Source: Caenispirillum bisanense
Lineage (GTDB): Bacteria > Pseudomonadota > Alphaproteobacteria > Rhodospirillales > Rhodospirillaceae
DNA: 64,000 bases
Assembly (NCBI GenBank): GCA_945906455.1
Contig: CAMDRB010000001.1
Location: forward strand, 710-64,709
Reading direction: 5' to 3'
A program made the translations under genes and the position numbers. The notes under the pieces were generated by a model. The model did not search any database. It saw only the letters and a program-made list of their open reading frames with translations, and was not told the DNA's origin. Below are positions 11,849 through 63,150 of the stretch, one piece after another (position 1 is the first letter of the stretch; each line of letters starts with the position of its first letter).

Positions 11849-11854
11849 ACAGCC

Positions 11855-16090: not shown

Positions 16091-16228
16091 GGATTCCAAG
16101 CTACTCCGTCGGCGCAATCTACCCCGTCCCTAAATTAGTATGTTTTGCCGCCGAAGGCGATATGGAACTAAGGCTCGGCAGGACTTGGAGAAAGCCCATA
16201 TTCTCAGCCGATCTCAAGAGCGAAACTA

Positions 16229-45631: not shown

Positions 45632-46141
45632 TTATTCGCAGGCGACCAGGCCGCCCACCGGAAGGATGTATTCCCAGCCGTCGTCTTGTTGAAGGCGCAG
45701 AGTGCCTTGCGAAACGACCACGCCCCGGTCCATGCCGGCGCGCGTTTCAAAGCCAACGTTGATTTGAATGCGGTGACCTGGATAGGTAAAAGTCTGGTTT
45801 TCGTATTGTCCGAAGGCCTCACGGCCGTCGATCACGATGCGTTTCATCCCCACTTCCTCGCCGTCGATCACCGCCCGTCCCGTACCCTCCCTGGCGCCGA
45901 AGAAGATCAGTTTACGTTCGGCGTTCCGCAGCCAGAGGAACATCGCGCATTCGCCGGCTGCCAACTTGCGGGGCGGCAAAGTCCCAATATGCGATTCCCC
46001 GCCGGAGGCCTGCGGCACCGACCCGGCGGCGCCTTGAAGCAAGGTCGGACGCGGTAGGGTTGAGCAAGCCGTAAGGCCAGCGGCAATCGAGATAGCCAGC
46101 ACCCTTTGTAAGAGGCCCGTCACGAATCCTTGCCCACTCAT
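45632..46141 (-). CDS. Lipoprotein of unknown function, last gene of the gsp transcription block
   Basis: Signal and lipobox VLAISIAAGLTAC|S, 169 aa, starting 13 nt after the gspN stop on the same strand. Confidence 0.65.
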   Translation of the reverse strand: MSGQGFVTGLLQRVLAISIAAGLTACSTLPRPTLLQGAAGSVPQASGGESHIGTLPPRKLAAGECAMFLWLRNAERKLIFFGAREGTGRAVIDGEEVGMKRIVIDGREAFGQYENQTFTYPGHRIQINVGFETRAGMDRGVVVSQGTLRLQQDDGWEYILPVGGLVACE

Positions 46142-46154
46142 GTCAATTCCACCT

Positions 46155-46883
46155 TCAACTCCAACGGCCGTGCTGCGTCAACGACATGGCGCCGTCGACA
46201 TAAATAAATCCAATGCTGGAAAGCACGCTCTTGACGGTTTCGTCCATCGTACGCGCATCCACTTGAATGTTGAAGGTGCCGTCGTTGATCAGGCGCAAGG
46301 TCACGGCGACGGCTTCGGCGCGGTCACCGCCGGTCAGCGGCACGACCAACACGCCGTCGCGGCAGGCGACGGCGCCCGTAAGCAGCGGTCCGTGCCAATC
46401 CAGTCCGGCGGGGCGCTCGACCAAGGCGTCGGTGCGCATGTCCGCATCGACCGAGCGGCATCCTGCCCTCGAGAAATCGGCGTGCCGAAGAACCATACTC
46501 ACGGCGCCGTTTAGGGGCAATAAGACCGGCAGCAAAGCCATATCCGACGAGAACGTAAAGTCCTTCACGACCACACTTGAATTGGCCCAGAGCGTAATCG
46601 AGCCGCCGCCGGACATTCCCGGCCCTGCCAACGCCACTTCGAGGTCGAGCCGCGCGAGCAGCAATGAGAGGGGGCTGACTGTCACCGCAACATCGCCGAT
46701 CGCTCGACCGCGCCATGTTAGGCCACTGATTCGGCCGCTCCACAGCAAGCCATCCGCTCGATTGAAGCTAAGCCCGCGATCGGCGAGATCGAACGCGGCC
46801 ACGGTCACGCCAAGCGGCAGCGAAGCCAGCGCGAAGAGGGTAAAGCAGACGCCGAATAGCGCGAACAAAGTCCGGTTCCTCAC
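46155..46883 (-). CDS. gspN: Type II secretion system protein N
   Basis: 242 aa with an N-terminal TM segment, a LWSGRISGLTWRGRAIGDV-type motif, and its position after gspM. Confidence 0.7.
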   Translation of the reverse strand: MRNRTLFALFGVCFTLFALASLPLGVTVAAFDLADRGLSFNRADGLLWSGRISGLTWRGRAIGDVAVTVSPLSLLLARLDLEVALAGPGMSGGGSITLWANSSVVVKDFTFSSDMALLPVLLPLNGAVSMVLRHADFSRAGCRSVDADMRTDALVERPAGLDWHGPLLTGAVACRDGVLVVPLTGGDRAEAVAVTLRLINDGTFNIQVDARTMDETVKSVLSSIGFIYVDGAMSLTQHGRWS

Positions 46884-47353
46884 TTCGCGCCTCCGCCGGC
46901 AAAGGTAATCTGAGCCCTGACGGATCCGCCTTCACTCTTCTGGATCGAAGCTCTAGCCACAGAAATTCCGTAGCGTTCCTGGAGGGCGGTTATCCATTTG
47001 TACAACGCCGGCGAACCAACGTCGTCAAGCCACACGTCCAGGTCGTTGTTTTCGTGGGGTTGAAGGCGGGTAATGGCAAGCCCTTGTTCGGATGCCACCA
47101 GGCCGACGGCCGTGCGTGCCTCAACATGCGCCCGCGCGACAGCTCCCGACCGAAGCCCCTCAATTTCGCTCGCGTCGGCTTCAACCTGGGCCAAAAGGGC
47201 GACGGCGTTTTCAAAGTCGGTCTTGGCCCCCAGGCGATAGGCGACCAGCGGCTTCATGCCGAACTGGACGGCGCACAAGACGAGCAGTAGGCCGCCGAGG
47301 CCGACGAGCGCTGCTTTTTCCCGCTGCGTACGTTCATGCCACCACTGCATCAC
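46880..47353 (-). CDS. gspM: Type II secretion system protein M
   Basis: 157 aa, single TM after RTQREKAAL, with 4-nt overlaps on both sides. Confidence 0.7.
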   Translation of the reverse strand: MMQWWHERTQREKAALVGLGGLLLVLCAVQFGMKPLVAYRLGAKTDFENAVALLAQVEADASEIEGLRSGAVARAHVEARTAVGLVASEQGLAITRLQPHENNDLDVWLDDVGSPALYKWITALQERYGISVARASIQKSEGGSVRAQITFAGGGAK

Positions 47354-48582
47354 GGCACCCGCACCACGATATCGGTAACGATGCGGTCACCGTCCTGTCG
47401 CGCACCGCCTTCCTGGACGGTCCCGCCGTTCTTTCTTATGGCAGTGTTAATACGTTCGATGACGTCATAAGAAGGCAGCGACATCGTTACCGAAGTTTCG
47501 CCGCCCTTAGCGTCAAATCTCAACACCTGAATTTCACTACCGTCAGTTTCCGAAACCACAGCAAACAGCATCGTGCTCGTCTGCAAGAATCCGGTCGACC
47601 CGCGGGCCTTGAGCTCCTGCAAATGAGCGCGGATTTGCGCACGCGGGTTTACGACCCGCTTGACGTCCGGGAAAACCCGGCGAAAAACCGCCTCGGTGCG
47701 CGCCGTCGCAAATTCCGCCTGTCGATGCAGACGCATACTGTCGACGACCAGGTAGGTCAGAGCAAGCACCGCCGTTGCGCCCACCAGGATGGCGGTCCGG
47801 CGCCAGTCCCGACCAACGGCGGCCCAATCCCGCCGTGGGGCGTAATCCCCCTGGAGCAGATTGATATGCGCGCCACCACGCACGGCCGCATGGGCCATTT
47901 GCAAAAGGCCAGGGTCGGAGAGCGATTCTAGTTTGGCAATGCCGCGATAAGCCTTCAAAGGCCCTCTCAACAGGGCCTCGGCGTCGCCCGTGATGAGACG
48001 CAGGCTGCGAATATTCTTAAACGAATCACCAAGGACCCAGTCGAGGACAGTGGGTTCGATAGTGAAGGCCGCAGCCCCCGGACCGAGGCGGACCGAAACC
48101 ATGCCGGCACGGCCGAGCACGACAGCCTCATGGGGCGCTGCCGTTACCGCCAAGAAATCGGGCACGAGAATGTCAGCCTTCAGCGCCATGCTCTCAAGTC
48201 GCGCTAGCCATGATCTCATAGTGTCGCGAGATACCGCCAAGATAGCCCGGCCTTCGTTTGCCGATTCTGGCGCCAGAGCAAAATGCATTTCAGCGCTGTC
48301 GACGGCAAGGTCGTCTTCAAGCATGAACGCTGCCGCCTTGCGCAACTGGACTTCAGTCTGGGCCGGCAGCGCTACGGTCCGCGCGAGGACGGATGCTCCG
48401 GATACGACAACCCAAGTTTCGGCTGGCCATGTCGCGGCCGGAGCTTCACCTTCGGCGAATTCTAATTTTCGGCCGGGTTCGATGATTCCCGAGCGCACGA
48501 TGGCAGCAGAGTCTTTACCAAATATACCCCACACCGAAGGCGCATCAGGAGACTCTGCCAAGATGACGATGAGGACTGTCAT
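47350..48582 (-). CDS. gspL: Type II secretion system protein L
   Basis: 410 aa with a cytoplasmic actin-like N-domain, one TM (AILVGATAVLALTYLVV) and a periplasmic C-domain. Its position between gspK and gspM supports the call. Confidence 0.72.
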   Translation of the reverse strand: MTVLIVILAESPDAPSVWGIFGKDSAAIVRSGIIEPGRKLEFAEGEAPAATWPAETWVVVSGASVLARTVALPAQTEVQLRKAAAFMLEDDLAVDSAEMHFALAPESANEGRAILAVSRDTMRSWLARLESMALKADILVPDFLAVTAAPHEAVVLGRAGMVSVRLGPGAAAFTIEPTVLDWVLGDSFKNIRSLRLITGDAEALLRGPLKAYRGIAKLESLSDPGLLQMAHAAVRGGAHINLLQGDYAPRRDWAAVGRDWRRTAILVGATAVLALTYLVVDSMRLHRQAEFATARTEAVFRRVFPDVKRVVNPRAQIRAHLQELKARGSTGFLQTSTMLFAVVSETDGSEIQVLRFDAKGGETSVTMSLPSYDVIERINTAIRKNGGTVQEGGARQDGDRIVTDIVVRVP

Positions 48583-49598
48583 CAGTCGAAGGTCCCGTAT
48601 CTGCGGGCATGGGTCGTGAGACGTCCACCGTCGTCCACTTCAACCAGAGAATTCATGGTGAATTCAGCCTCGTGAAATTGCACCGTGCTTGCCACGTCGA
48701 AATAATGGGTCTTGAGAACGAACTGCCGGCGGGTGGGTTCATCGATCGCTAGCCCCGAAAACGCATCCAGGGAGAAGAATCGATCGGTGCTGGAAAACCC
48801 GTCTAAGGGCCGAGCGGCGATGAGACGCTGCGCTTCGGTGAGTCGCAGCTCAGGCCCAGCCAGCATGACCAAGAGCGCGGCCTGGCTCTCGCGCACGGTA
48901 TTGATGTTGATCCGGCTAAGGTCATTGGTCGGCAAAGCGCAGACGAGAGGCCGTAGCCGCTGATAAATCTCCTCGGTGTAGCCGGAAATGGCGCGCAGTT
49001 CGCTGGGCTCGGCGAGGAGTGTGCCGGCGGTGCGGTAAGGCACTAGACGAGCGCCGTAGTATTCGTCTTCGGCTCCGTAGGCCGCCGATTCCCCGTCGCT
49101 ATCAACCCAATCGACCAAAGACGCCGCCAGCGCCGCGCTCAGCCGCCGGTCGAACTCCAAGGCCGTTAGCAATGCGATATATTGTTCCTGACCGGTAGCC
49201 CGGACGATGGTGAGGCCCGTCGGTCCGCGTTCGGCGACGCTGTTAAGGTTGAAACAAGTTCCCCCGTCCGTGATCCGGCCGGAAATCGAACCGCCGTCAA
49301 TCGCGAACGCGACGCCGTCCTTCGCCCAGGGATCGCGCAATGTCGAACGCGAGGAGCTCACCTTCCAGCTTCGCCAGAGCACCTGACGAGCCATGGCTTC
49401 GGCTCCGAGCGCGTACCATGACATCTGATCGGAGATGCGGATATTGGCAGTTCGCCGAACCGCGAAGCGAATGTCATCGGTAACGGCGATGGCAACCGAG
49501 GACATGACGGTGACCAAAAGCAGGACGATGAGCAAGGCCACGCCTCGCTCATGGTGCGCGCCCCGATAGCCCCTCCCGGACATCCTTTCAAACACCAT
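48582..49598 (-). CDS. gspK: Type II secretion minor pseudopilin K
   Basis: 338 aa. The N-terminal hydrophobic segment RGVALLIVLLLVTVMSSVAIA lacks Glu5, as GspK does. Size and operon position fit. Confidence 0.78.
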   Translation of the reverse strand: MVFERMSGRGYRGAHHERGVALLIVLLLVTVMSSVAIAVTDDIRFAVRRTANIRISDQMSWYALGAEAMARQVLWRSWKVSSSRSTLRDPWAKDGVAFAIDGGSISGRITDGGTCFNLNSVAERGPTGLTIVRATGQEQYIALLTALEFDRRLSAALAASLVDWVDSDGESAAYGAEDEYYGARLVPYRTAGTLLAEPSELRAISGYTEEIYQRLRPLVCALPTNDLSRININTVRESQAALLVMLAGPELRLTEAQRLIAARPLDGFSSTDRFFSLDAFSGLAIDEPTRRQFVLKTHYFDVASTVQFHEAEFTMNSLVEVDDGGRLTTHARRYGTFD

Positions 49599-49610
49599 GA
49601 CCCACCTTCC

Positions 49611-50216
49611 TCAATTCGCAGGCGTAAGAAAAGCTTGGCGAATCTCGCCCAGCCCAGCGACAGTTACAGTAACCGCAATCGCTTTCGGCAGTTCGGCGTT
49701 TTCCGACACCGCACGCCATCTGTCGATCCAATTTCCGGCGGAGAAAAACGAAACCCGCGCACTGCTCACATTCGCAAGGAGTCTGGTGGTTATCGTCGCC
49801 GTACCGGGCGCGGGATCGAGATAGGGACGCGTGCGGCGGAGGAGTTCGGCCCCATCGAGAATGTATTCCACGTATTGTAGCGAGCTGCGCGCTTCCTCGC
49901 CCGCAGGGTTGTTCCAACCCCGGCGGACAAATGACACCAAGACATTCTTGTCCTGTGCCGACGATGTCGCGAAGCTGCTTCGAGATTGTCCGCCATAAGC
50001 GTTGCGCACGGCGCGCGGCGCGAGCTGGCCGAGATCGGCCTTCATCACGGCACGAGCGACCTGGATATCTTGGATGGCCGCTGAAGAGCGGTGGAAGGCC
50101 TCTTTGTTGCGCAGTGTCAGATTGAGAATGCCGACCGAGGCGGCGGTCAGCAGCGAAAAGGCCAGCAATGCCGCCAGCATTTCCACCAAGGTAAACCCGC
50201 GCGCTACGGCCGTCAT
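49611..50216 (-). CDS. gspJ: Type II secretion minor pseudopilin J
   Basis: Prepilin motif ARG|FTLVEMLAALLAF, 201 aa. Confidence 0.8.
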   Translation of the reverse strand: MTAVARGFTLVEMLAALLAFSLLTAASVGILNLTLRNKEAFHRSSAAIQDIQVARAVMKADLGQLAPRAVRNAYGGQSRSSFATSSAQDKNVLVSFVRRGWNNPAGEEARSSLQYVEYILDGAELLRRTRPYLDPAPGTATITTRLLANVSSARVSFFSAGNWIDRWRAVSENAELPKAIAVTVTVAGLGEIRQAFLTPAN

Positions 50217-50614
50217 CGCAAACCCCGAAAGGCGCTAACCGCGATCAAGGCCGACTCTCCCGGCGCGATACGTACCGCGACGTCGACGCGCTTGATATCT
50301 CGATCGCTGGTCGCGCTCACGGCCCGAGACCATACCCAAGCCTGGCCGGCAATTTCGGTTTCACCGTTGGTCTCACCGAGCGGAAGTTCAACCGGCGCGG
50401 CAACGGCCTCAACCAGCAGATTTTCGGCAATAATCTCGGCAAACAAGCGGTCGCGGACAGCGGAAGACAGGCTTGCGCTAACGCCCTGCACATTCAGCAG
50501 CGCGAGCACGGCAATGCTCAGGACGCCTAGTGCGACTAAGACTTCCACCAGGGTAAATCCGCGGTCGCGGCGTTGATCAGGGTTTGTCGAATACGACAAC
50601 TTCGCCTCTTTCAT
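50213..50614 (-). CDS. gspI: Type II secretion minor pseudopilin I
   Basis: Prepilin motif DRG|FTLVEVLVALGVLSIA. The start is uncertain (ATG 50614 or a TTG about 50599 after AAGAGG). Confidence 0.78.
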   Translation of the reverse strand: MKEAKLSYSTNPDQRRDRGFTLVEVLVALGVLSIAVLALLNVQGVSASLSSAVRDRLFAEIIAENLLVEAVAAPVELPLGETNGETEIAGQAWVWSRAVSATSDRDIKRVDVAVRIAPGESALIAVSAFRGLR

Positions 50615-51101
50615 TACTCGAAACAACATATTGATCGGAGCCTTCGGCGAGCGACATAGAGAAAGGTGTGACCACACCCGTTGGATCAAACACCACACTC
50701 GGCATGACGCCCTTCGCTTCGACGCGTGTCGGGGAGCGCAGCCCGGCGTTGGCCGCCCGGTTCATGTCGGCGACGACGCCGGGTCTCCAGGACTTGCGTT
50801 CAAAGGCCCGCTCGCCTGACCATTCCCGCCACTTACCAGCGTCAAGATAGTAAAAGGCGTAGCCCTCGGACGTGACCAGTAGCCCGGTAGATACGCCTTT
50901 GATAATGCTCTCTTGGGCAAGAAGCTTGGCGCGCGCCGCGAGCGCACGCGCGTCATTGCGCAGCGAACCGGTTTTCCCATGCAGGGTGAAGACAGCCACG
51001 CTGGTGAGAAGGCCAATGATCACGAGCACGACCAACGTCTCAACCAGCGTGAAGCCGCGCGGCTTCCGCTCTCGGCGCTTAATTCCAGTTGCCGATGTCA
51101 C
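50577..51101 (-). CDS. gspH: Type II secretion minor pseudopilin H
   Basis: Prepilin motif PRG|FTLVETLVVLVIIGLL. The GTG start at 51101 overlaps the end of gspG. The longer ORF to 51443 is rejected because it runs through gspG. Confidence 0.75.
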   Translation of the reverse strand: MTSATGIKRRERKPRGFTLVETLVVLVIIGLLTSVAVFTLHGKTGSLRNDARALAARAKLLAQESIIKGVSTGLLVTSEGYAFYYLDAGKWREWSGERAFERKSWRPGVVADMNRAANAGLRSPTRVEAKGVMPSVVFDPTGVVTPFSMSLAEGSDQYVVSSNERGEVVVFDKP

Positions 51102-51540
51102 CGTCGAGCCCTTCTCCGCCAAGTTTGCGATTGGCGCCAAGTGAATAGATATCGAACGGCCCCCGCTCGCCGGGAAAAACATACTGATAGGGTACTCCCC
51201 AAGGATCGCTGGGCAACCGTCGGATATAGGCGTCTTTGCGGTAGCGGTCAGGCTGCGCGAGTTCATCGGGGGCCCTGACCAACGCGTCAAGCCCTTGTTC
51301 CATGGTTGGGTAAGCAAGAGTGTCGAGCCGGTACATTTCAATCGCCTGGGAAATGAGCATGACATCGGCCTTGGCCTTCTCAACCATGGCCTTATCCTGG
51401 CTCGGCAGGACATTGAGCACGACGAAGGTCGAGAGCAGGCCAATGATTACGATCACGACCATCAGTTCGACTAGCGTAAAACCCGCCTCGGCGTGGCGCT
51501 TAGCTGTAAGCCGGAACGGCATTTTCAATAGTGCGGTCAT
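51079..51540 (-). CDS. gspG: Type II secretion major pseudopilin G
   Basis: AEAG|FTLVELMVVIVIIGLL followed by DKAMVEKAKADV...IEMYRLD...YP, the highly conserved GspG core. Confidence 0.92.
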   Translation of the reverse strand: MTALLKMPFRLTAKRHAEAGFTLVELMVVIVIIGLLSTFVVLNVLPSQDKAMVEKAKADVMLISQAIEMYRLDTLAYPTMEQGLDALVRAPDELAQPDRYRKDAYIRRLPSDPWGVPYQYVFPGERGPFDIYSLGANRKLGGEGLDGDIGNWN

Positions 51541-51557
51541 CGGGAGGTGTTCCAGAT

Positions 51558-52787
51558 CTACAAGAGGGCAAGCGAATTGAGTTGCAGGATCGGCATGAGG
51601 ATGGCGAGCATGATCAAGGCGACCACGCCGCCCATGGCCACCACGATCAATGGCTCCAGCAACCCGATGGCGATTGACGTAAAGGACTCGAATTCGCTTT
51701 CGAGATGATCGGCAGCCTTGGTCAACATGACATCAAGCTTTCCGGTATTTTCCCCGACTGCGGACATATAGATGACCATGGGGGGAAAGAGATTCGCCCG
51801 GCGCAGGCTGTTGGAGAGGCTGGTCCCCTCCTTGATCGAGTTTATTACGCGTCCAACCGCTTCGATCAGGACGAGATTCGACAGCGTGGTTTTCGCCGCG
51901 GCGAGACCCTCGATCAGGGGCGAACCGCTCGCGATCAAGGTGCTGAGGGTGCGGGCCAACCGCGCGGCATAAAGCCCCCGCAAAAGCTTTCCGAGTACCG
52001 GCAAGTCAAGCACAAGACGGTCCACGCGGCGGCGGAAGGATTCACGCTTGAGGGCGTGCCCGAATCCAATAAGGCCCAGAATTATGATGAATAGTCCGGC
52101 GAGGCCGAAGCGGCTCAATCCATCGGAAAGCGCAATTAGCATGCGCGTTAAGAAAGGGAGTTCCTGGCCCATCCCGTCAAATTGCGACACGACCTTCGGG
52201 ACAACGAACACCATCAATATCGCGACAACGACCACGGCTACGGCTGACAAGACCAACGGATAGATCAGCGCCGCAGTCACTTTCGCACGCAACCGCGCGG
52301 TTTTCTCCAAATGGTCCGCGAGTCGATCCAAGACCGACCCGAGGTTGCCGGAGATCTCGCCGGCGCCTATCAGGGCGCGGTAAAGCGGCGAAAAGACGCG
52401 CCCATGCTGTGCCATGGCGTCCGCCAGACGAAAGCCTTCCAAGACACCCGCCCGCACCGCCAAAAGCGTGGCTCGCATTGCCTTATTGTCGGATTGCAGG
52501 GCAATGGTCTGCAGGGACTCTTCCAACGGCGCGGCGGCGCTCACCATCGTTGCGAGTTGGCGCGTCATGACCATCACGGCAGACGGCCCCGGCGGCCGGC
52601 GGTGCAGCCACGACCTAAACGAGAGGGGGATTCCGCCTTTGCGATCCTCGGATACCGAGGACAGTTTGATCGGCATCAGGCGGCTTTCCCGAAGCTGGCG
52701 ACGGGCGAGCCGGGCCGTATCGGCCGACACGACGCCGGTCCTGACGCCGCCTCTGTGGTCCAATGCTTCGTATTCAAATGCCGGCAT
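51558..52787 (-). CDS. gspF: Type II secretion inner-membrane platform protein F
   Basis: 409 aa, a duplicated GspF domain, three TM segments, MPAFEYEALD at the N-terminus. Confidence 0.92.
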   Translation of the reverse strand: MPAFEYEALDHRGGVRTGVVSADTARLARRQLRESRLMPIKLSSVSEDRKGGIPLSFRSWLHRRPPGPSAVMVMTRQLATMVSAAAPLEESLQTIALQSDNKAMRATLLAVRAGVLEGFRLADAMAQHGRVFSPLYRALIGAGEISGNLGSVLDRLADHLEKTARLRAKVTAALIYPLVLSAVAVVVVAILMVFVVPKVVSQFDGMGQELPFLTRMLIALSDGLSRFGLAGLFIIILGLIGFGHALKRESFRRRVDRLVLDLPVLGKLLRGLYAARLARTLSTLIASGSPLIEGLAAAKTTLSNLVLIEAVGRVINSIKEGTSLSNSLRRANLFPPMVIYMSAVGENTGKLDVMLTKAADHLESEFESFTSIAIGLLEPLIVVAMGGVVALIMLAILMPILQLNSLALL

Positions 52788-52789
52788 GA

Positions 52790-54280: not shown

Positions 54281-56325
54281 TTGGGTGCCCCACGCCCAGC
54301 CGCTTCGCCGCCGGGGGCCGGAATTGGATCGGCGCCGAGGATCTCGTTCGCAAATTCACCAAGCCGTGCGTTGCCATCGCCGCTGCTCCGCATCTGCTCG
54401 GACTGCATATAGTTAAATTTTCGCTCGGTGACCGCGCGAAGATCGCGCGCGTTGTTGATGATCGTCGGCCGCAGGAACACCATCAAATTCGTCCGCCGGC
54501 GCGATTTTGATTCGTTCTGAAAAAGCCTGCCCAATACTGGAATGTCGCCGAGCAACGGAACCTTGTCCAAAGAGATCTGTTCGTCGTCCTCGATCAAGCC
54601 GCCGAGAACGACGATTTGGCCGTTATCCGCCATGACGGTGGTCTCGATCTCGCGCTTATTGGTGACAAGCTCGGAGGATTGAGCGCTGACCGGGCCTAGA
54701 ACGCTGGAGACTTCCTGGCGGATAGAAAGCTTGATTGATTCGCCCTCATTGATTTGAGGTTTTACTTCGAGCTTGATGCCAACGTCCTTGCGCTCGATGG
54801 TGCGAAATGGATTGGTGTTGTTGCTGCCCAAGGCTTCGCCGGTCGTTATCGGTATTTCCCGGCCGACAAGAATTGAAGCCGCTTGATTGTCCATTGTCAT
54901 GATCGACGGCGTCGACAGGACGTTGGATCCGATATCGCGCTTCAGGGCATTGAGAATAACGCCGAAGATTGTTCCATTGCTTGACTGTCCGGCAAAACCG
55001 CCGAGGAAGCCGGCGGTACCAAGCAATGAGTCAACGGCCAGGCCTTGCAGCGCCTTTAGGGCATCGGTGTCTTCACCTTGAGTTTCGCGGTCAAGAACCA
55101 CCGCGCCTGTGGCCGCCAGTATACTCGGTGAAATATCGCCGGGAAAATTCGTCGCGGAGAAAGGAACTTGACTGCCCCTGCCGCCGGACAGGATGTACTG
55201 CACACCAAGCTGCTTTGCCGCCGAGTCCGAGACCTCGACAATGATCGCCTCGACTAGGACCTGAAGCCTCGGTATGTCGATTTGGCGAATAACCTCACTC
55301 AATTCCTGCTGAACGTCAGGCGAGGCGTTTATCACCAGGGCATTGGTTCCGCTGTGAACGGCGATGGTTGCCCGGCCCGGCTGGCCGCCAGCGCCATCCT
55401 TGGGCGGACTGCCTTTGGTCAAAGCGCTAATGCGCTCGAGTAACGGCAGCAGCTCTTCCGCCGCCACATACTTGAGGTGGACGACTTTCGTGTCCGCCGT
55501 CGATGCGCCCTGTGAGTCCAGTTTGTCGATGACCGGCTCAAGCATCTTGAGGAGCTCGGGCGGGCCGCGCAGGACAATACTATTGCTTCCCTCTAGCGGC
55601 ACGACGGTGAAATTGCTAAGGGCGTTATTGGCATCGCCTTGCGCCTTGGCAAGGTCGGAAACGACGCGCGCCATCTGTTCCGCCGAAGTATTTCGGAGCG
55701 TGATAATGCTGACGGTCGAGGGGTCACGGTCGAACGTGGCGACGACTTGGCGGATACGCCGGACGTTCGACGCATAGTCCACGACGATGACCGCATTGGT
55801 TCCGCGCGTCGTGACCACGCGACCCTGACGGTTGACCAGCGGCTGGATCATCTGCAGCGCGGTATTGACGTCGACGAAGCGCAGGTGAATCACTTCGGTG
55901 ATCAATTGATCGCCGCTGGCCGGCTGATCAAGCGGCGCTGCATCCTGCGCCGCGGACTCCTCAGGCACCACCCGGTAAGCACCACCGGAGGTCGGCAGCG
56001 CCGTGAAACCATTGGCGCGTAACGTCGAAAGGAAAAGGTCAAAGACATCATCGGGACTTAAGGCTGTCTGAGATATGACCGTGACCTTGCCTTGCACGCG
56101 GGGGTCGACGACGAAAGTCTTGCCGGTGAGTATCGAAACATCACCGATAAATGCTCGGATGTCGGCCTCACGCAGATTCAAGACCTGGTTTGGGCTTTGA
56201 CCTTGGCTCGGGTTTTGGGTGGCGCTTTGCGCCATAGCCCCACCCTCCCGCTCGCAAAAAATAGCGAGAAAGAGCCCCAGGGACGCGGCCAGAACCCGGC
56301 CACTCTGCTTGATATATTTATTCAT
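54277..56325 (-). CDS. gspD: Type II secretion secretin D
   Basis: 682 aa with a signal peptide, N0-N3 domains and a C-terminal secretin domain (VPLLGDIPVLGRLF). Confidence 0.93.
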   Translation of the reverse strand: MNKYIKQSGRVLAASLGLFLAIFCEREGGAMAQSATQNPSQGQSPNQVLNLREADIRAFIGDVSILTGKTFVVDPRVQGKVTVISQTALSPDDVFDLFLSTLRANGFTALPTSGGAYRVVPEESAAQDAAPLDQPASGDQLITEVIHLRFVDVNTALQMIQPLVNRQGRVVTTRGTNAVIVVDYASNVRRIRQVVATFDRDPSTVSIITLRNTSAEQMARVVSDLAKAQGDANNALSNFTVVPLEGSNSIVLRGPPELLKMLEPVIDKLDSQGASTADTKVVHLKYVAAEELLPLLERISALTKGSPPKDGAGGQPGRATIAVHSGTNALVINASPDVQQELSEVIRQIDIPRLQVLVEAIIVEVSDSAAKQLGVQYILSGGRGSQVPFSATNFPGDISPSILAATGAVVLDRETQGEDTDALKALQGLAVDSLLGTAGFLGGFAGQSSNGTIFGVILNALKRDIGSNVLSTPSIMTMDNQAASILVGREIPITTGEALGSNNTNPFRTIERKDVGIKLEVKPQINEGESIKLSIRQEVSSVLGPVSAQSSELVTNKREIETTVMADNGQIVVLGGLIEDDEQISLDKVPLLGDIPVLGRLFQNESKSRRRTNLMVFLRPTIINNARDLRAVTERKFNYMQSEQMRSSGDGNARLGEFANEILGADPIPAPGGEAAGRGAPK

Positions 56326-56327
56326 CG

Positions 56328-57278
56328 TTACCGATCAACCGCGATTCTGTGAACTTTTCGTTGCCCTTTGCGCTCGATATCGAGCGTGAGGCGTTCGGCA
56401 TCGCCCAAGCTCGGGACAAGGGCCGTCAGGCTTGCGATATCGCTGACGGGCATGCCATTTACGGCCAGCAACACGTCGCCGGACACCAGGCCTGCCTGTT
56501 CAAGCAGAGTTGGCGTGGCGGACTGCAACACCACACCAGCAGCGCCCGTATCACCGGTCTGTGCTGTGAAGCGCAGGTTGCTGAACAGAGCCTTCGCCCC
56601 GACGTCTATCCGTCGCCACGGTTCAGCCGCTTCGGTCGCGGCCGAAAGCATGGCCGGGGATGATCTGTCCGTCGCTGGTCCTACGCCCGGCATGTCCGCC
56701 GGCGAAACCCCGGCAACCACCTTTTCCTTATCGAGACTGAGACTTTCCGTGACGCCATTGCGCCGAATGGTCACACGACCGGGTAAGACCTGCTCGAGCC
56801 GCACGCCGGGCATGATGTTCTGGCCGGCGAAGTAGACGTTTTGGGTATTGTCGACACCGGCGATTATCGCGCTGCCGCCGGCGCCGCCTTGGCCCACGCG
56901 GATTCCGAACAGCTGCAGGCTGAGCATCGTTTCAGGTGCATGTGCGGCGGCCCCGCCCGAGGTCGCGGCAATCGCGCGGTGGAAGGGATCAAATGTTGTC
57001 AGCGCGCCGCTCCGCCAGGTCGAGCGCGATGCGGCCGGCGCCACCGCCTTGCCGACGGTCGCGAGAGCCTCGGACGATTCCGGCGATCCGATCAGAGTCC
57101 AGAGCAGCTGCGCAGCAAAGGCGGAAAGGCCGACGACGGCCACACCCTCGATCAATCCCCGCCACCGGGCCGCAGGCTGGGCGCGCAGCAGCCCGAGGCT
57201 CTGTGAGCCCCACCGCTCCATTCGCCGCGCCGTAGGCGCCAGCTTGAAATCGGGGAAACTCACCTCAGACATGCCCAT
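56328..57278 (-). CDS. gspC: Type II secretion protein C (TM + HR domain + PDZ)
   Basis: 316 aa with an N-terminal TM (VAVVGLSAFAAQLLWTL) and a C-terminal PDZ-like GLVSGDVLLAVNGMPV. It lies directly upstream of gspD. Confidence 0.78.
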   Translation of the reverse strand: MGMSEVSFPDFKLAPTARRMERWGSQSLGLLRAQPAARWRGLIEGVAVVGLSAFAAQLLWTLIGSPESSEALATVGKAVAPAASRSTWRSGALTTFDPFHRAIAATSGGAAAHAPETMLSLQLFGIRVGQGGAGGSAIIAGVDNTQNVYFAGQNIMPGVRLEQVLPGRVTIRRNGVTESLSLDKEKVVAGVSPADMPGVGPATDRSSPAMLSAATEAAEPWRRIDVGAKALFSNLRFTAQTGDTGAAGVVLQSATPTLLEQAGLVSGDVLLAVNGMPVSDIASLTALVPSLGDAERLTLDIERKGQRKVHRIAVDR

Positions 57279-57296
57279 TTCCCTTTAGAAACGGCG

Positions 57297-59891
57297 CTAG
57301 ACGCCAAATGAGAAGGACTGGCCAAGTTTGTAGGTGTCAACATTGACGGTCGTGCCTTCGTAGGCCTGCAGCGCCCGATACTTAGCGCCCGAAATATTTT
57401 CAGCTTTAAAGCTAACCTCGTATTCGCTTTCAAACACCGAGACCGTTCGGTTGTAGGTAAAATCCACACTTAAGGGCGGCCGCTCAAAAATTTCGGGCAA
57501 CGTCTGCGGCGCGGATGCGCGGATGCGCTTGCTCGAATAGTTCAGCAAAAGGGTCGCCGCCGACCCCGCCTCGGCATCCTCGTAGCCGACCTGAAAATTG
57601 GCGAGATACCGTGAGTGGCCTTGCAGCGCCCGGCCGTCCCGGATGATGAACGACGCCGGCAGGACTGTGCCGTTCTGACGGATAACAGTATCACCTGGCT
57701 TGATGTCGAGCTTGGATTCGCTCCAGGTGAAGTTTGTGGCCGCGAAGAAATTCTTGGTCGACAACCATTCTTGCTGCCACGGCGATTCCAAAACATATTT
57801 AAATTCGGCCTCGACGCCGTAGAGCTCGGCGCGCGGCACGTTCTGAAAAGTGGTCTGCTGGTTGTCGCCGGCTTCGTTGATGGTTTCTTCGACCGGGCTC
57901 GAAAGTTTCTTATAGAAACCGCCCAGGGTCACGTACTGTTCGTCGGCGAAATACCATTCCCACCGGCCGTCAATGTTAGTGATTCTGGAGTTGGTCAGGT
58001 TTGGATTGCCGACGAATTGCCGATCGGTATCGACGTCGATAAAGTCGGCCGGCGCCAATTCGCGGAACTGCGGGCGCCCGATGGTCTTCGATCCACCGAC
58101 GCGAACCTGCATGTTTTCAGCAAAGTTCCAGGTAATGGTCGCCGCCGGGAGCCAATAGCTCTCGTTAATCTCGGTTTCTACTCTTGTATTCGACGTGTAG
58201 AAGTCAAACGTATCGACCATCTGAGCGCCGGACTCGTATCGGCCGCCCAAGGCAGCGCGAACATAGTCGCCGACCTGCGCGTCCATCCCGACGTAGGCTC
58301 CATGCACCTGAAGGGCACCGGTGTAGGCTGGGGGCGCGGAACTGCCCGTGACCTCGGTGAGGACAAAACGGCCGGAATTGATGTTCTGATCGGAGAAAAT
58401 ATAGTCAATGCGCCGTGAAAGAAGCGCCGGCGGCAAGGGCCCCCCGGTCGGCAATAGACGATAGTCGCGTTGCTCGGAATCACGCGCGTTGTCGGTGTAG
58501 AGATAGCCCGCCTTCAAGACCATTTCGCGCTCGTTGAAGGTCGTTACTTTCGTCAAGTCGAGCGCGCCGGAGAAGAGCGTGTCATCGATCTTGCTGAATC
58601 GCGTCAGGTTTCGGCCTTGCGAGAAATCATAAGTGAGCTGGCCGGAGCCAAAATCGCGATACTGGGCAAAACGCTCATACGGAGCATCGCGCGTCGCGGT
58701 TGAGTACGAGCCCTTCCAATTGACGGTGAAGTCATCCTCGAGGTGATGCAGGCCGTCGATCTGATTGGTCCACATCTGGCGCTCGAACCACTCGGTATAG
58801 TCCCGGCGCACGATTGTGCCGAAATTCGCCGACAAGCCCTGCAGCGTACGCGCCTCCTTGGAGGTGTTGCGAATCAGGAGGCTGGTGAATTTTATCTCGT
58901 TGTTATCCCAGTCGGCGCCGAGGCCGAGCAAGGCATGCCAGCGAATGTCATTCTGCGTGCTGACAAAGTTGAAGTTGTCGGCAACCACCAGCACCCTGGC
59001 GCCTGCCGCGTTCGATCCAAACCGACCGTCCTGCTGCTGGCCGCGCTTGGTCCGCCAATTGTTGTCGTAGCCGGCAGAGACAAGAACGCCGTAACTGGTG
59101 TCGCCGCGCAGGAGCCGGTCGCCCATGGTCACGTCGAGCCCGAAATTTCCCGGGGTCGTGCCTTCGAAGACTACCCACAGATCCGAGTTGACCAGACTTC
59201 GGCCGATCGTCTGGAGCTCCGTATCCGAGAAATTCAAGGTGTTAATGCGCTTCTTGGAATCGATGGCCGCCTGCAGCGGATCCGGAATCGCGCGCGTGCC
59301 GCTGTCGAATCCTGCCCAATCGTAAGCTCCGCCCTCGTATAGCAGCCCGTTTTTCCAGGTAGTTTCGGTATTTCCGCTACCCGAGAGACTGACTTCAACG
59401 AACGACTCATCCGGGACGGTCTTGGTCTTGATTTCGAGCAAGCCTCCACCGAATTCACCGGAATATTGCGGCGAGTAGGTCTTCTGCGCCGACGCGCTCG
59501 CCAGAACCGCCGTGGGAAAAAGGTCGAGTGGGACAACGCGGCGGAGCGGTTCGGGGCTCGGCAGGGGAAGGCCATTGAGCATGGCGTTGGAGTAGCGTTC
59601 GCCCAGGCCCCGGATATAGATGAATTTTCCGCCGACCAGGCTCAAGCCCGTGACCCTGCGCAAAGATAACGCGATATTGCTATCGCCCTGCTTCTCGAGG
59701 TCCGCGGCGCTGATGAAGCTTGATATTTCGGATGTCTCGCGTTTGGGCTCGGGGATAAAGGCGCCACGAACGACAATTTCATCAACGGCATCGGCGGCCG
59801 GCGCTTGTTGGCCAGCTATCACGCTCGTGGACCAGCTCAGTGCGGTCGACGACAGCAGCGCCCCAGCCAGGATTGAACCAAAACGTTTCAT
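57297..59891 (-). CDS. TonB-dependent outer-membrane receptor (C-terminus truncated by in-frame TAG)
   Basis: Signal peptide, TonB box DEIVVRGAF, plug domain (IYIRGLGERYSNAMLNG) and a long beta-barrel. It ends ...SFSFGV-TAG, and the next codons read RRF-TAA. The ATG at 59891 follows an AGAGGTG RBS. Confidence 0.88.
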   Translation of the reverse strand: MKRFGSILAGALLSSTALSWSTSVIAGQQAPAADAVDEIVVRGAFIPEPKRETSEISSFISAADLEKQGDSNIALSLRRVTGLSLVGGKFIYIRGLGERYSNAMLNGLPLPSPEPLRRVVPLDLFPTAVLASASAQKTYSPQYSGEFGGGLLEIKTKTVPDESFVEVSLSGSGNTETTWKNGLLYEGGAYDWAGFDSGTRAIPDPLQAAIDSKKRINTLNFSDTELQTIGRSLVNSDLWVVFEGTTPGNFGLDVTMGDRLLRGDTSYGVLVSAGYDNNWRTKRGQQQDGRFGSNAAGARVLVVADNFNFVSTQNDIRWHALLGLGADWDNNEIKFTSLLIRNTSKEARTLQGLSANFGTIVRRDYTEWFERQMWTNQIDGLHHLEDDFTVNWKGSYSTATRDAPYERFAQYRDFGSGQLTYDFSQGRNLTRFSKIDDTLFSGALDLTKVTTFNEREMVLKAGYLYTDNARDSEQRDYRLLPTGGPLPPALLSRRIDYIFSDQNINSGRFVLTEVTGSSAPPAYTGALQVHGAYVGMDAQVGDYVRAALGGRYESGAQMVDTFDFYTSNTRVETEINESYWLPAATITWNFAENMQVRVGGSKTIGRPQFRELAPADFIDVDTDRQFVGNPNLTNSRITNIDGRWEWYFADEQYVTLGGFYKKLSSPVEETINEAGDNQQTTFQNVPRAELYGVEAEFKYVLESPWQQEWLSTKNFFAATNFTWSESKLDIKPGDTVIRQNGTVLPASFIIRDGRALQGHSRYLANFQVGYEDAEAGSAATLLLNYSSKRIRASAPQTLPEIFERPPLSVDFTYNRTVSVFESEYEVSFKAENISGAKYRALQAYEGTTVNVDTYKLGQSFSFGV

Positions 59892-59996
59892 TGCAGTCAC
59901 CTCTTTACTGATCCCCCGAGAGGGCTTGGACGCATTGTCCGGATGAGACCGCCCGGCGGCGGCTCCCTTTTGCCGCCACCGGGTTTTGAGTCTCGG

Positions 59997-62708
59997 TTAG
60001 CAGGCCGGCGTAGGTCCGCCCAAGCCGCATGACCAGCCCTGCCACCACGTGTCGGAGGCACCGCTGACTGCGCCGATATAGTTCGCCGCCGAGAAGAACG
60101 TACCCAGCGTCGTCGGGTTCACCGCGGCGCGCGCCGTTTCGGTCGGACCGTTGATGAACGTGCTGGTGAGGGTATCCGGCGTCGCCGTGGAATTATTCGT
60201 ACCGGCATTGAAAACCGCCGCCACCTGTACGTCCGTCACGTTGGTATCGACGGTGAAGGCAATCGGGCAGTCCAAGAGGACCGAGTTGTGGACAAGGCCC
60301 GATAACAAAGTAGAGGCGTCGTCGATATCCAGGCACTGCGGCGACCCAATAACCACACCATTCACAAACGTCCCGCCGACTCCGACCCGCTCAAGAATTG
60401 CCGCCGTGTGGGGCGCATTGGGTTGCCCGACAAGAGTGAAATTCGAGAACTTCGGCGCCGTCAGCGGCAATTTCGCATGGTCGGTCGGCAGATTGTCGAG
60501 TTCGAGCATATGGTCGCCTTCATCGGCGGCCTGCACCACGAGCGCGAACTGCATGTTGCCGTTCCAGCCCGCGGACCAGTCGAGCGAGTCGTCGCTGGCG
60601 CCGGTGACGACGATGTGTTTGAGATTGACCGTGCCACCGAACCATTCGATGCCGTCGTCGGAGCTGTTGTGGCTTTGGAGGTAGTCGATCTCGGTGCCCG
60701 CACCGACGCCGGCAATGGTGAGGTTCTGGAGTTCGTTGTTAGGTGTGATTTCGATGCCGCCGTGCTTGATCTGCATATATTTCAAGCGGCCGCTGCTGTC
60801 GTTGGCTATTGCGCCGCCGAAGAAGGCGGTCGTGCCTTCTACCTGAGCTTCGCAGTTGGCGAGCCCGCCGGGTCCCGGGCAGGAGTTGATCGGAGCGCGA
60901 CCGAGCACTACGAGGCCGCCCCACAAGCCGCGGGCGGTTGCTGCCGCGGTGTTGTTGACGTCTTGAAGTGCGGTAAACGTCACCGGCGCCGTCGGCGTGC
61001 CGTTGGCGAAGATCTTCGAACCCCGGTTCACGACCATGAAATCCGAAGTTCCGCTGCCGAAGATCGTAACGCCGGCATCGATCGTCAGATTGGATGGATC
61101 GCCGCCGGTCTTGGTGCCGTCACCGCCGACATCGATGCCGATGTCGACGCGGCCGCCCAGCTGATAGAGATTTCCGGCCGTGAGGTTTAGATCGGCCGTG
61201 TAGACCCCGCGCACTTCACAACGATTCTGGCCGAGTAGGGTGCCGATGTTGGTGGTCCCGGTCGGGCAGGTCGGCGGCGCGAACAGGCTGACCGTCCAAC
61301 CGAAGGCCCAATTGTTGCTGGCGGTTTCGGTCGACGAAAAGGCCCCGACATAGGTGGTATTGTCGAAGAAGCCGCTCAAGGTCGAAGCGTTGAATGGCGT
61401 CCGCGACAATTCCTGCGGGCCCGGGAAGTATTGACCGGTAAGCGAGGTGGCGCCGACGACGTTGTTCGTGCCGCCGGTGAAGACCGTCGCCACTTGCGCA
61501 TCGGTGACGTTAGTATCGACGGTGTAGGTCACCGGGCAATCCAAGGTGACCGACCGGTAGGTAAGAGTCGTCAGCAATGTCGACGCGTCGTCGATGTCGA
61601 GACATTGCGGCGAGCCTTTGACGATTCCGTTCACCATCGTTCCACCAACGCCGACACGCTGCAGAATGCCTGCCGTGTGCGGCGCATTGGGTTGTCCGAT
61701 AAACGTGAAGTTTGCGACTGTCGGCGCCGTCAATGGCAATTTGGCGTTATCCGTCGGCAGGTTGTCGGCCTCGACCATGTGGTCGCCTTCGTCGGTGGCT
61801 TGAACCACCAGGGCGTATTGGATGCGGCCGACCCATCCGGAGGCCCAGTCCAGCGAGTCGTCGCTGGCGCCGGTGATAACGACGTGCTTGAGGTTAACCG
61901 TGCCGCCGAACCACTCGATTCCGTCATCGGAGCTGTTGTGACTCTGGATGTAGTCGATGGTGGTGCCGGCGCCGACGCCGGCGAGCGTCAGGTTTTGAAG
62001 TTCGTTATTGGGGGTGATTTCGATGCCGCCGTGCTTGATCTGAACATAGCGCAGGGTGCCCGAGCTATCGTTCGGTAGCGCGCCGCCAAAGAAGGCCGTG
62101 GTGCCTTCGACCTGGGCTTCGCAGTTCGCAAGGCCGCCCGGTCCAGGGCAGGAGTTGATGGGAGCGCGGCCCAACATCACAAGTCCACCCCACTGGCTGC
62201 GGGACGTGGCAGTTGCCTGGCCGAGAATGTCTTGGCGGCTGGTGAAGACGATCGGCAAGGTCGCTGTTCCGTCGGCGATGATGCGCGAGCCGCGATTGAC
62301 GACAATGAAGTCCGAAGTTCCCGCGCCGAAAACGCGCACGCCGGGCTGGACGGTCAGGGTCACGGACTGACCGCCGGTCTTGGTGCCATCACCACCGACG
62401 TCGGCGCCGACATCGATGCGGCCATTAAGTTGGTAAATGACGCCGCTGGTCAGTGTCAGGTTAGAAAGGAGCGTTCCCGAGAGGGCGCAGGTGGTATTGT
62501 TGCCGACCGATGTCACCGCAGTCGTGCCGGCCGGACATGTTCCGGTCTGGCCGCCGGTACCGCCCGTGCCGCCGCCGCCGGTACCGCCGCCGCCGGTGTC
62601 AACTTGGCTGGTCTCACCTGGAGAAGTTACGCTGGCATCACTGCACGCCGCGAGCGCCAGGGCGGCGCAGGCAGCCACGATGAATTTCTTTAGCGGCTTG
62701 TTGGTCAT
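59997..62708 (-). CDS. 903-aa lipoprotein made of two tandem ~420-aa modules (predicted beta-helix-like), function unknown
   Basis: Lipobox LALAAC|S followed by a Gly/Thr linker (GGGGTGGGGTGGTGG). Module 1 maps to about 61272-62540 and module 2 to about 60000-61271. They share long identical blocks: GRAPINSCPGPGGLANCEAQVEGTTAFFGGA, IKHGGIEITPNNELQNLT, QSHNSSDDGIEWFGGTVNLKH. The ATG at 62708 follows GAGGGG. Confidence 0.8.
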   Translation of the reverse strand: MTNKPLKKFIVAACAALALAACSDASVTSPGETSQVDTGGGGTGGGGTGGTGGQTGTCPAGTTAVTSVGNNTTCALSGTLLSNLTLTSGVIYQLNGRIDVGADVGGDGTKTGGQSVTLTVQPGVRVFGAGTSDFIVVNRGSRIIADGTATLPIVFTSRQDILGQATATSRSQWGGLVMLGRAPINSCPGPGGLANCEAQVEGTTAFFGGALPNDSSGTLRYVQIKHGGIEITPNNELQNLTLAGVGAGTTIDYIQSHNSSDDGIEWFGGTVNLKHVVITGASDDSLDWASGWVGRIQYALVVQATDEGDHMVEADNLPTDNAKLPLTAPTVANFTFIGQPNAPHTAGILQRVGVGGTMVNGIVKGSPQCLDIDDASTLLTTLTYRSVTLDCPVTYTVDTNVTDAQVATVFTGGTNNVVGATSLTGQYFPGPQELSRTPFNASTLSGFFDNTTYVGAFSSTETASNNWAFGWTVSLFAPPTCPTGTTNIGTLLGQNRCEVRGVYTADLNLTAGNLYQLGGRVDIGIDVGGDGTKTGGDPSNLTIDAGVTIFGSGTSDFMVVNRGSKIFANGTPTAPVTFTALQDVNNTAAATARGLWGGLVVLGRAPINSCPGPGGLANCEAQVEGTTAFFGGAIANDSSGRLKYMQIKHGGIEITPNNELQNLTIAGVGAGTEIDYLQSHNSSDDGIEWFGGTVNLKHIVVTGASDDSLDWSAGWNGNMQFALVVQAADEGDHMLELDNLPTDHAKLPLTAPKFSNFTLVGQPNAPHTAAILERVGVGGTFVNGVVIGSPQCLDIDDASTLLSGLVHNSVLLDCPIAFTVDTNVTDVQVAAVFNAGTNNSTATPDTLTSTFINGPTETARAAVNPTTLGTFFSAANYIGAVSGASDTWWQGWSCGLGGPTPAC

Positions 62709-63150
62709 GATACCCCTCACAGATTACGAACACACATCCCACCGCAGTGCAGCATCGGTTCAATGCGGCGGGGTGGAGGGGGACGTATACTGAATGTTCA
62801 GAGACTCATCCGTGTCAGCCACGTGACGAATAGATGACAATCCGGCCCGATCTTCGCCACGCGCGGCCTCTCGACCATGGGCTTTGGGGCGGATAAGCTC
62901 TGTTTTCGAATCATCGACCTCGGCAGCGAGGAACGCGGCGATGACTTTGCTTGCGGGATCTCATGCGGGACGGTCAGGCAACCGCCGTGCGTCACGGGGC
63001 CAGAGGCACCCCACAAAATTCCCAAGGTAACGCGCTGCTGATTCGTCAGAAAATGTCACTAAACATTCATATTTCTTACATAATTATTTCATTGTTACTT
63101 TGACTTGGAAGGATCATTATTTCTCCAGTCAGTTTTACGTGGAGGACGGA

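Follow-up and report, generated by a model that had tools for sequence, protein, structure and literature searches.

Why should one compact block of genes hold a lipoprotein, a TonB-dependent receptor (TBDR) and the components GspC to GspN of a type II secretion system (T2SS)? This question is raised by a stretch of 64,000 nucleotides from an uncultured alphaproteobacterium (assembly GCA_945906455.1, contig CAMDRB010000001.1, positions 710 to 64,709, filed under Caenispirillum bisanense), which is called the window in the following and in which all positions are counted from its first nucleotide. The window has a G+C content of about 61%, and at positions 45632-62708 its minus strand carries 15 closely packed genes, namely, a lipoprotein gene with two repeats, a TBDR gene, gspC to gspN, and a gene for a small lipoprotein. 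All 15 co-directional genes that had been listed in an initial annotation of the sequence were found again at the same coordinates. The answer that emerged is that the block represents an ElpS/CC0171/Xcs-type T2SS locus, and that it is most likely a phosphorus-scavenging module under the control of PhoB, a reading that we favor with some, but not with high, confidence.

The initial annotation had supposed that a TBDR gene directly upstream of gspC was without a described precedent. This is not the case, because the arrangement was published in 2008 and again in 2010. Lu et al. (2008; PMC2585010) reported that every xcs cluster has a TBDR gene upstream of xcsC, and Le Blastier et al. (2010; PMC2996285) described elpS (cc0170), a TBDR gene (cc0171), and gspC to gspN in Caulobacter crescentus, and reported the same organization in Xanthomonas, Sphingopyxis alaskensis, and Hyphomonas neptunium. 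Homology to the Caulobacter proteins was tested via an ortholog, and the published elpS and cc0171 primers were used to locate a metagenome contig encoding it. The primer for quantitative PCR (qPCR) ELPSF matched one metagenome contig, L085. Both the elpS start primer and the 3' fusion primer match an open reading frame (ORF) of 512 amino acids on L085, and there is one mismatch in either case. The ORF ends with TACTSLPTN and contains LAGC at residues 17-20 and Asn38, as has been reported for ElpS. In addition, the cc0171 qPCR primers match the TBDR gene downstream of this ORF with 1-2 mismatches. The ElpS ortholog aligns with residues 74-485 of the window lipoprotein (42% identity, E 3e-82) and again with residues 480-894 (40% identity, E 2e-79), and the L085 TBDR is collinear with the window TBDR (34% identity, E 4e-81). 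Both halves of the lipoprotein and the receptor thus align with the L085 proteins, and therefore the window contains a tandem-duplicated elpS, a cc0171-type TBDR gene, and a Xcs/Caulobacter-type T2SS. A search seeded with the single-repeat protein of Brevundimonas was saturated by Brevundimonas matches and did not reach Caulobacter.

The Caulobacter locus and the window have in common the gene order and orientation from the lipoprotein via the TBDR to gspC to gspN, a lipobox followed by a low-complexity tether, and a stem-loop after the lipoprotein gene. They are alike only in part with respect to regulation, in that the window has a Pho-box-like element, while in Caulobacter the dependence on PhoB is experimental. 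ElpS of Caulobacter has about 512 amino acids and a single module, in contrast to the 903 amino acids and two tandem ElpS modules of the window protein, and the Caulobacter read counts imply a strong drop at the junction of the TBDR gene and the next gene, whereas the respective spacer in the window has a length of 12 nt. Furthermore, the window differs by the lack of an adjacent gspO, by an extra lipoprotein gene after gspN, and by a premature amber codon in the TBDR gene. The xcs cluster of Xanthomonas, compared by its published description, shares the set of 12 genes xcsC to xcsN including the gene for GspN, a TBDR gene and hypothetical genes directly upstream of xcsC (PMC2585010), and an ElpS homolog, XAC0692, which is placed within the cluster by a review from 2020 (PMC7777525); single-repeat members of the family occur in the related genus Luteimonas. 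It differs in being gammaproteobacterial, with an alphaproteobacterium as its presumed donor, and the xcs system has no assigned function. The locus type has thus been known since 2008-2010, and what the window offers is material for comparison rather than a system of a novel kind. New are variant features that are specific for the window or its clade, i.e., the tandem duplication of ElpS, the fused TBDR-gspC junction with its spacer collapsed to 12 nt, the additional lipoprotein gene as a lineage-specific thirteenth operon gene, and the truncated TBDR allele with its amber codon.

The first gene of the block (59997..62708, minus strand) encodes the lipoprotein of 903 amino acids with two tandem ElpS-type beta-helix repeats. 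The lipobox LALAAC with Cys22, a column that is invariant in the alignment of homologs (alignment A1), is followed by a Gly/Thr-rich tether and by two repeats of about 423 amino acids each (repeat 1, about 61275-62537; repeat 2, 60000-61274; both on the minus strand). The two halves are 67% identical to each other on the protein level, and the DNA of positions 60193-61154 is 75.9% identical to that of positions 61462-62423. Public gene calls assign PF28492 (Beta_helix_4) to the protein as a precomputed Pfam match; local Pfam and NCBIfam scans did not yield a match, in the case of Pfam because PF28492 is newer than the scanned copy. When one repeat was used as query in an exhaustive HMMER search, the ElpS family was found to comprise 5,699 clusters at 50% identity, and its proteins contain from one repeat up to six. 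Members with a single repeat, which have a length of about 500 amino acids, are present in Brevundimonas, Phenylobacterium, and Luteimonas. Wherever a homolog has two repeats, its halves share 60-82% identity, but the identity of each half to its counterpart in distant orthologs amounts to only 41-50%; nonetheless, N-terminal halves are slightly nearer to N-terminal halves and C-terminal halves to C-terminal halves (alignment A1). Judged from these identities, the pattern would fit either concerted evolution by gene conversion within the gene or duplications that occurred repeatedly and independently.

What might such a protein do? The AlphaFold2 model of repeat 2 is a right-handed parallel beta-helix with a predicted local distance difference test score (pLDDT) of 95.8, and the invariant residues QxHNxxDDGxExFGG, DDSxD, Q, Q, and D...E are located on consecutive rungs of the helix according to the alignment and this model. 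The resulting conserved ladder of His, Asp, and Glu suggests a metal-dependent binding face or catalytic face. A comparison with the Protein Data Bank (PDB) by Foldseek retrieved only generic beta-helices (tailspikes, pectate lyases, an adhesin) with E-values of at least 1.3e-3 and template modeling (TM) scores of at most 0.4, and an enzymatic class could not be assigned from such matches. A PDB sequence search with the profile of the lipoprotein family found nothing. These structural neighbors bring up a different explanation, in which the locus is of the CUT type (carbohydrate utilization containing TonB-dependent transporter), the lipoprotein acts on polysaccharides at the cell surface as a lyase or hydrolase, the resulting oligosaccharides are taken up by the TBDR, and phosphate plays no particular part. 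The structural neighbors, exclusively pectate lyases, glucanases, alginate lyases, and tailspikes, are in line with this explanation, and the acidic ladder seems to resemble the sites of Ca-dependent lyases. The best NCBIfam match of the TBDR is TIGR01782 (TonB-Xanth-Caul), a Xanthomonas/Caulobacter subfamily rich in carbohydrate receptors; however, the match reaches 196 bits versus a cut-off of 310, the Foldseek similarities are as weak as given above, and genes for glycoside hydrolases, sugar transporters, or sugar regulators do not recur beside the gene pair of lipoprotein and TBDR.

The genomic surroundings of the pair were compared across 80 species-level loci, all with two-repeat homologs, which were retrieved by a genome scan and stem from Hyphomonadaceae, Maricaulaceae, Parvularculaceae, other Alphaproteobacteria, and Rheinheimera/Arsukibacterium; the window proteins were compared by tblastn. 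The TBDR gene directly follows the lipoprotein gene in all 78 informative loci, and both single-repeat loci that were examined also have this pair. The T2SS genes are adjacent in 43 of the 71 informative loci. They are co-directional from gspC onward and located downstream of the TBDR gene in 38 loci (directly in 37, about 5 kb away in L034), and divergent and upstream of the pair in five loci. No T2SS was found within 10 kb in the remaining 28 of the 71 loci, and the single-repeat locus of Phenylobacterium has a TBDR gene and no T2SS. In 15 loci gspO is located just upstream of the lipoprotein gene and gspC follows downstream, and therefore the lipoprotein-TBDR pair resides inside the gsp cluster. 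The linkage of the three components, which had been proposed from the window, thus extends well beyond this genome, and the obligate unit is the lipoprotein together with the TBDR, while the T2SS is a frequent but facultative partner. It might be argued that this linkage has no function at all, that the pair and the T2SS are independent modules on one island, and that the tight junction results from genome streamlining. The 28 loci without a T2SS in the neighborhood would be in line with this view, as would the description of the xcs region as an island acquired together with flanking genes (PMC2585010). Yet the adjacency recurs in 43 loci of several alphaproteobacterial families and in two orientations, the release of ElpS from Caulobacter cells depends on the T2SS (PMC2996285), and gspG and gspI belong to the PhoB regulon of that species (PMC11208175), which makes a functionless neighborhood highly improbable.

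Evidence for a link to phosphate comes from the upstream region of the lipoprotein gene. A Pho-box-like element, TTGTCAT-ctat-TCGTCAC-gtgg-CTGACAC (62812..62840, minus strand), consists of three repeats phased by 11 bp and is located about 105-130 nt upstream of the ATG. In an alignment of the window with L003, L088, L089, and L090 this block is the best-conserved part of the region. Ten further loci have a match to TGTCA-N6-TGTCA with no more than one mismatch 130-185 nt upstream, compared to a background of 0.02 per 430 nt; in L085, a scan for this pattern that allowed up to two mismatches did not reveal a Pho box in front of the Caulobacter-like elpS. On the basis of this conservation, PhoB would be expected to bind to the element in the window. 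In addition, phoB (TIGR02154, 370 bits) is the divergent neighbor in seven Rheinheimera/Arsukibacterium loci, ppx is found near the lipoprotein-TBDR pair in eight loci, and a phytase gene is found near the pair in L088 and L089. Adjacency to a phytase gene was considered as a general trait of the locus and dismissed, as it is limited to these two loci. In Caulobacter, the elpS promoter has been shown to be PhoB-dependent (PMC5172544), and the published list of the PhoB regulon includes elpS, the TBDR gene, gspG, and gspI (PMC11208175, supplement). The recurring context of phoB, ppx, Pho box, and phytase, and the PhoB dependence of elpS in Caulobacter (PMC5172544; PMC11208175), argue against the carbohydrate locus outlined above, which we consider quite unlikely. 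A phosphorylated polysaccharide as substrate would reconcile it with a phosphorus-scavenging module.

Two further phosphorus-related observations were made in the window. A polyphosphate kinase gene (ppk; 26981-29185, plus strand) and an exopolyphosphatase gene (ppx; 29243-30757, plus strand) form a pair about 15 kb away from the block. Moreover, a second conserved block of four repeats phased by 11 bp (TGTCAC, ATTCAT, TTACAT, TTTCAT; 63054-63092, plus strand) is located about 60-100 nt upstream of the first of two genes for tetratricopeptide repeat (TPR) proteins, and it looks like a Pho box for the opposite promoter. These tandem paralogous genes (63151-63537 and 63609-63980, plus strand) encode small secreted TPR proteins and are divergent from the lipoprotein gene; one copy has been kept at the same position in L003, L088, L089, and L090, but not in more distant loci.

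Are the 15 genes transcribed as one unit? The gap between the lipoprotein gene and the TBDR gene, which had been given as about 100 nt, is 105 nt if the TBDR starts at the ATG at 59891, and 96 nt if it starts at the GTG at 59900. This gap contains a GC-rich stem-loop (59945..59994, minus strand), which begins 3 nt after the lipoprotein stop codon and folds into a perfect 12-bp stem and an outer stem of 6 bp without a U-tract. It is a candidate for an attenuator, a partial terminator, or an mRNA-stabilizing element. A hairpin of -20 kcal/mol or lower is present within 90 nt of the lipoprotein stop codon in 91% of 77 loci, compared to 9% of shuffled sequences, and the corresponding place of the Caulobacter-like L085 contains a stem of 13 bp with TTTTT after it. 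Of the 37 co-directional loci, the spacers of which are mostly 45-330 nt long, 86% have a second hairpin between the TBDR gene and gspC. The spacer is much shorter in a small group, i.e., 12 nt in the window (from the ancestral TBDR stop codon), 9 nt in L088, the lipoprotein of which is 80% identical to that of the window, and 25 nt in L003, and the hairpin is absent in all three; in relatives at 67-71% identity the spacers have a length of 122-146 nt. As such spacers are too short for a terminator, co-transcription of the TBDR gene and gspC is likely in the window and its nearest relatives. A scan for consensus promoters and terminators yielded no more in the block than expected from shuffled sequences; the hairpins of the block lack the T-runs that the scan requires.

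In Caulobacter the situation is different. The RNA-Seq counts of elpS (CCNA_00169) rise from about 170-2,200 without induction to about 180,000-320,000 after induction, those of the TBDR gene (CCNA_00170) from about 430-3,300 to about 96,000-152,000, and those of the next gene (CCNA_00171) from 12-84 to 115-507 (PMC11208175), so that the counts fall about 600-fold from the TBDR gene to the next gene (PMC11208175, supplement). Because hairpins flank the TBDR gene in most relatives and because of this drop in Caulobacter, a single transcriptional unit is a derived feature of the clade. Of the translational and transcriptional linkage that the initial annotation had deduced from the junction, the transcriptional part thus probably holds for the window clade with its spacers of 9-25 nt, but it does not hold for most relatives; the tight coupling of TBDR and gspC is real, yet it is a derived trait of a small clade and not of the system as a whole.

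This difference also bears on the function that had been proposed initially, namely, that the T2SS is a dedicated exporter of the lipoprotein similar to that of PulA, and that the TBDR imports the captured substrate, all encoded by one operon. Several facts would be well explained by this model. The TBDR-gspC spacer is free of hairpins and only 9-25 nt long in the window, L088, and L003, in 15 loci the pair has gspO on one side and gspC on the other, overexpression of elpS is toxic in T2SS-deficient Caulobacter, and the route of ElpS across the outer membrane has not been established. However, ElpS of Caulobacter is surface-exposed and sensitive to proteinase K in the absence of the T2SS, which is needed only for its proteolytic release (PMC2996285). 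Since ElpS reaches the surface without the T2SS in the one case that has been studied, export of this lipoprotein by the T2SS is not a documented mechanism. The 28 of 71 loci that lack a T2SS within 10 kb, together with the single-repeat locus of Phenylobacterium, the hairpins flanking the TBDR gene in most relatives, and the 600-fold drop of the Caulobacter counts (PMC11208175) also speak against the model, and we regard it as unlikely. The comparison with pulA-pul of Klebsiella and sslE-gsp of Escherichia coli leads to the same point. In these loci a gene for a surface lipoprotein is likewise located beside T2SS genes that affect its fate, but PulA and SslE require the T2SS to cross the outer membrane, in contrast to ElpS of Caulobacter (PMC2996285), the loci are devoid of a TBDR gene, and the lipoproteins are unrelated in fold. 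For the window clade, it might be that the T2SS is a direct surface exporter in addition to its other roles.

The receptor itself deserves a closer look. The cc0171-type TBDR gene (57297..59891, minus strand) encodes 864 amino acids, with a Plug domain (PF07715, E 1.1e-9) and a beta-barrel domain (PF00593, E 1.1e-20). An amber codon at 57297-57299 terminates the protein four residues (KRRF) ahead of an in-frame TAA at 57285-57287, which had been guessed to be the ancestral stop codon. The guess was right. A metagenome contig (L001), which shares 99.98% identity with the window along 9.2 kb, has AAG in place of TAG, its TBDR ends with SFGVKRRF followed by TAA, and about 70 orthologs end alike with [KR]xxF/W/Y. 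Outer membrane barrels normally use a C-terminal aromatic residue, the beta-signal, for assembly, and this residue is missing from the window allele, which ends with SFSFGV. The gene belongs to the family, but its allele in the window is truncated. The truncated product is recorded on two other contigs, and one of them, the Logan contig L091, stops exactly one base before the variant position. A real polymorphism would cause the assembly graph to branch here and thus give such a contig end, which is suggestive, but not proof. The TBDR orthologs of L033, L037, L038, L039, L051, L053, and L067 end with R, H, N, or L, and thus a terminal Phe is not universal in the receptor family.

Taken together, the following sequence of events can be envisaged for the PhoB-controlled module. 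Under phosphate limitation PhoB would bind to the conserved Pho box and induce strong transcription of the lipoprotein gene, and the stem-loop after this gene would let a fraction of the transcripts pass into the TBDR gene. Exclusively in the window clade, transcripts would run on through the 12-nt spacer into gspC to gspN and the small lipoprotein gene, so that, if true, the secretion capacity would be induced together with uptake. The lipoprotein would be lipidated and displayed on the outer membrane by its flexible Gly/Thr tether, and its two beta-helix modules, each with a conserved ladder of His, Asp, and Glu, may bind or cleave a phosphorus-containing substrate, while the partner TBDR would import what the lipoprotein captures or releases. 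By analogy to Caulobacter, where ElpS is associated with alkaline phosphatase activity and its release depends on the T2SS and on a protease (PMC2996285), the T2SS would secrete a factor, probably a protease, which cuts the tether and frees the beta-helix modules into the medium, and it may also secrete other scavenging enzymes.

Several points weigh against such a phosphorus-scavenging module. The number of Pho-box patterns within the window alone is at chance level, so that the support for the element stems from its conservation only, and the strict pattern is present in only a minority of the 80 loci. The fold of the lipoprotein has no more than a generic resemblance to that of polysaccharide lyases, hydrolases, tailspikes, and adhesins (best Foldseek E 1.3e-3), and the biochemical activity of ElpS has not been established even in Caulobacter. 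It was reported in 2010 that cc0171 is constitutively expressed (PMC2996285), with which the later RNA-Seq results are in conflict (PMC11208175). Furthermore, the organism is known here from its sequence alone, and import may be impaired in this strain, because its TBDR allele lacks the C-terminal KRRF.

A protein that might be relevant for the release step is encoded at 13934-16117 (minus strand). It has 727 amino acids and contains a trypsin-like domain, and it is a possible candidate for a protease secreted by the T2SS, since the release of ElpS in Caulobacter has been attributed to such an enzyme.

The invariant pairing of the two genes invites a comparison with SusCD of Bacteroidota and with TbpBA/LbpBA of Neisseria, in which the gene for an outer membrane lipoprotein is also invariably paired with a TBDR gene, a likeness that suggests capture followed by import. 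The window lipoprotein is different in being a beta-helix instead of a SusD-like TPR fold or a TbpB-like lobe, a complex with its receptor is putative, no match to the SusD family was found for it, and the order of the genes differs, with the lipoprotein gene first and a hairpin after it. As a tentative generalization, which is possible but which we would not call probable, ElpS-type lipoproteins and their TBDRs could form a widespread two-component acquisition system of the outer membrane, with a beta-helix that is specific for a phosphorus-containing polymer and, in the window clade, with fusion to a dedicated T2SS. Such a system may be comparable in principle to SusCD or TbpBA. The Hxc T2SS of Pseudomonas aeruginosa with its substrate LapA offers another parallel, because it is a secondary T2SS that is induced by phosphate starvation and tied to phosphate acquisition (PMC7777525). 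It differs in that its cargo is an alkaline phosphatase. To our knowledge, the Hxc cluster contains neither a TBDR gene nor an ElpS-type lipoprotein gene. The ElpS family is large, with a confident beta-helix model, a pairing with one type of TBDR that is invariant in the 78 informative two-repeat loci and the two single-repeat loci, and a facultative T2SS. The Pho box, the phoB neighbors, and the expression in Caulobacter make it an abundant candidate for an unrecognized route of phosphorus acquisition in aquatic and marine Alphaproteobacteria, and the window clade with its fused uptake and secretion genes is a handy place to ask whether T2SS and TBDR share a substrate.

All 12 secretion genes gspC to gspN scored above Pfam or NCBIfam thresholds, and all are on the minus strand. 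The first, gspC (T2SSC and PDZ domains; Pfam/NCBIfam), extends over 56328..57272 when it starts with its second ATG, which is the start chosen by public gene calls, while a first ATG is located at 57278. The distances of 18 nt from the TBDR amber codon and 6 nt from the ancestral TAA that had been given for this junction are correct for the first ATG, and are 24 nt and 12 nt, respectively, for the second; the ribosome-binding site of gspC, AGGGAA, abuts the ancestral TBDR stop codon. It is followed by genes for the secretin GspD (54277..56325; TIGR02517, 553 bits), which has an ordinary signal peptide without a lipobox as read from its N-terminus, the ATPase GspE (52790..54280), GspF (51558..52787), and the major pseudopilin GspG (51079..51540), all three identified by Pfam, as were gspH (50577..51101, inferred GTG start), gspI (50213..50599, with an uncertain start at 50599, 50614, or 50629), gspJ (49611..50216), gspK (48582..49598), gspM (46880..47353), and gspN (46155..46883), while gspL (47350..48582) was identified by Pfam/NCBIfam. 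The block is compact, as had been claimed, but overlaps of 4 nt do not run through most of the gsp genes, they are present at only four of the 11 gsp-gsp junctions (D/E, I/J, L/M, and M/N). The others have an overlap of 1 nt (K/L), overlaps of about 23 nt with inferred starts (G/H and H/I), or gaps of 2-17 nt. A gene for the prepilin peptidase GspO (Peptidase_A24) does not flank the block in the window and may lie elsewhere in the genome.

The last gene of the block (45632..46141, minus strand), the thirteenth gene of the gsp operon, encodes a lipoprotein of 169 amino acids with a lipobox Cys26, and the gap of 13 nt to gspN was measured as previously given. It has only 23 homologs, all unnamed metagenome proteins. 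In L086 and L087 a homolog is located 23-32 nt after gspN, while the neighbors further downstream differ, and because the adjacency to gspN has been kept nevertheless, the gene is a conserved thirteenth operon gene in this lineage. The predicted structure comprises a disordered tether and an eight-stranded beta-barrel with two invariant Cys and a core pLDDT above 92. No Pfam or NCBIfam match was found, and nothing similar was found in the PDB (best E 0.06). The known pilotins (GspS/PulS/OutS and AspS/YghG) were considered and rejected, because there is no similarity in sequence or fold and none of them is among the PDB matches. As GspD is devoid of a lipobox, the protein may have a pilotin-like or another accessory role. 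In L087 the gene after the small lipoprotein gene (10645-12141, plus strand) is a phosphorus-related neighbor, encoding a CYTH-CHAD protein, which is a triphosphate-tunnel enzyme with a polyphosphate-associated domain.

In the window, the block is bordered downstream by a convergent gene for a MIP aquaporin and upstream by the genes for the TPR proteins. Elsewhere in the window, two adjacent paralogous EipB-like (PF08904) genes are present at 35080-35946 and 35996-36838 (plus strand), and a protein of 1161 amino acids, which belongs to the AsmA family or is DUF748-like and bears no relation to the block, is encoded at 3116-6601 (plus strand).

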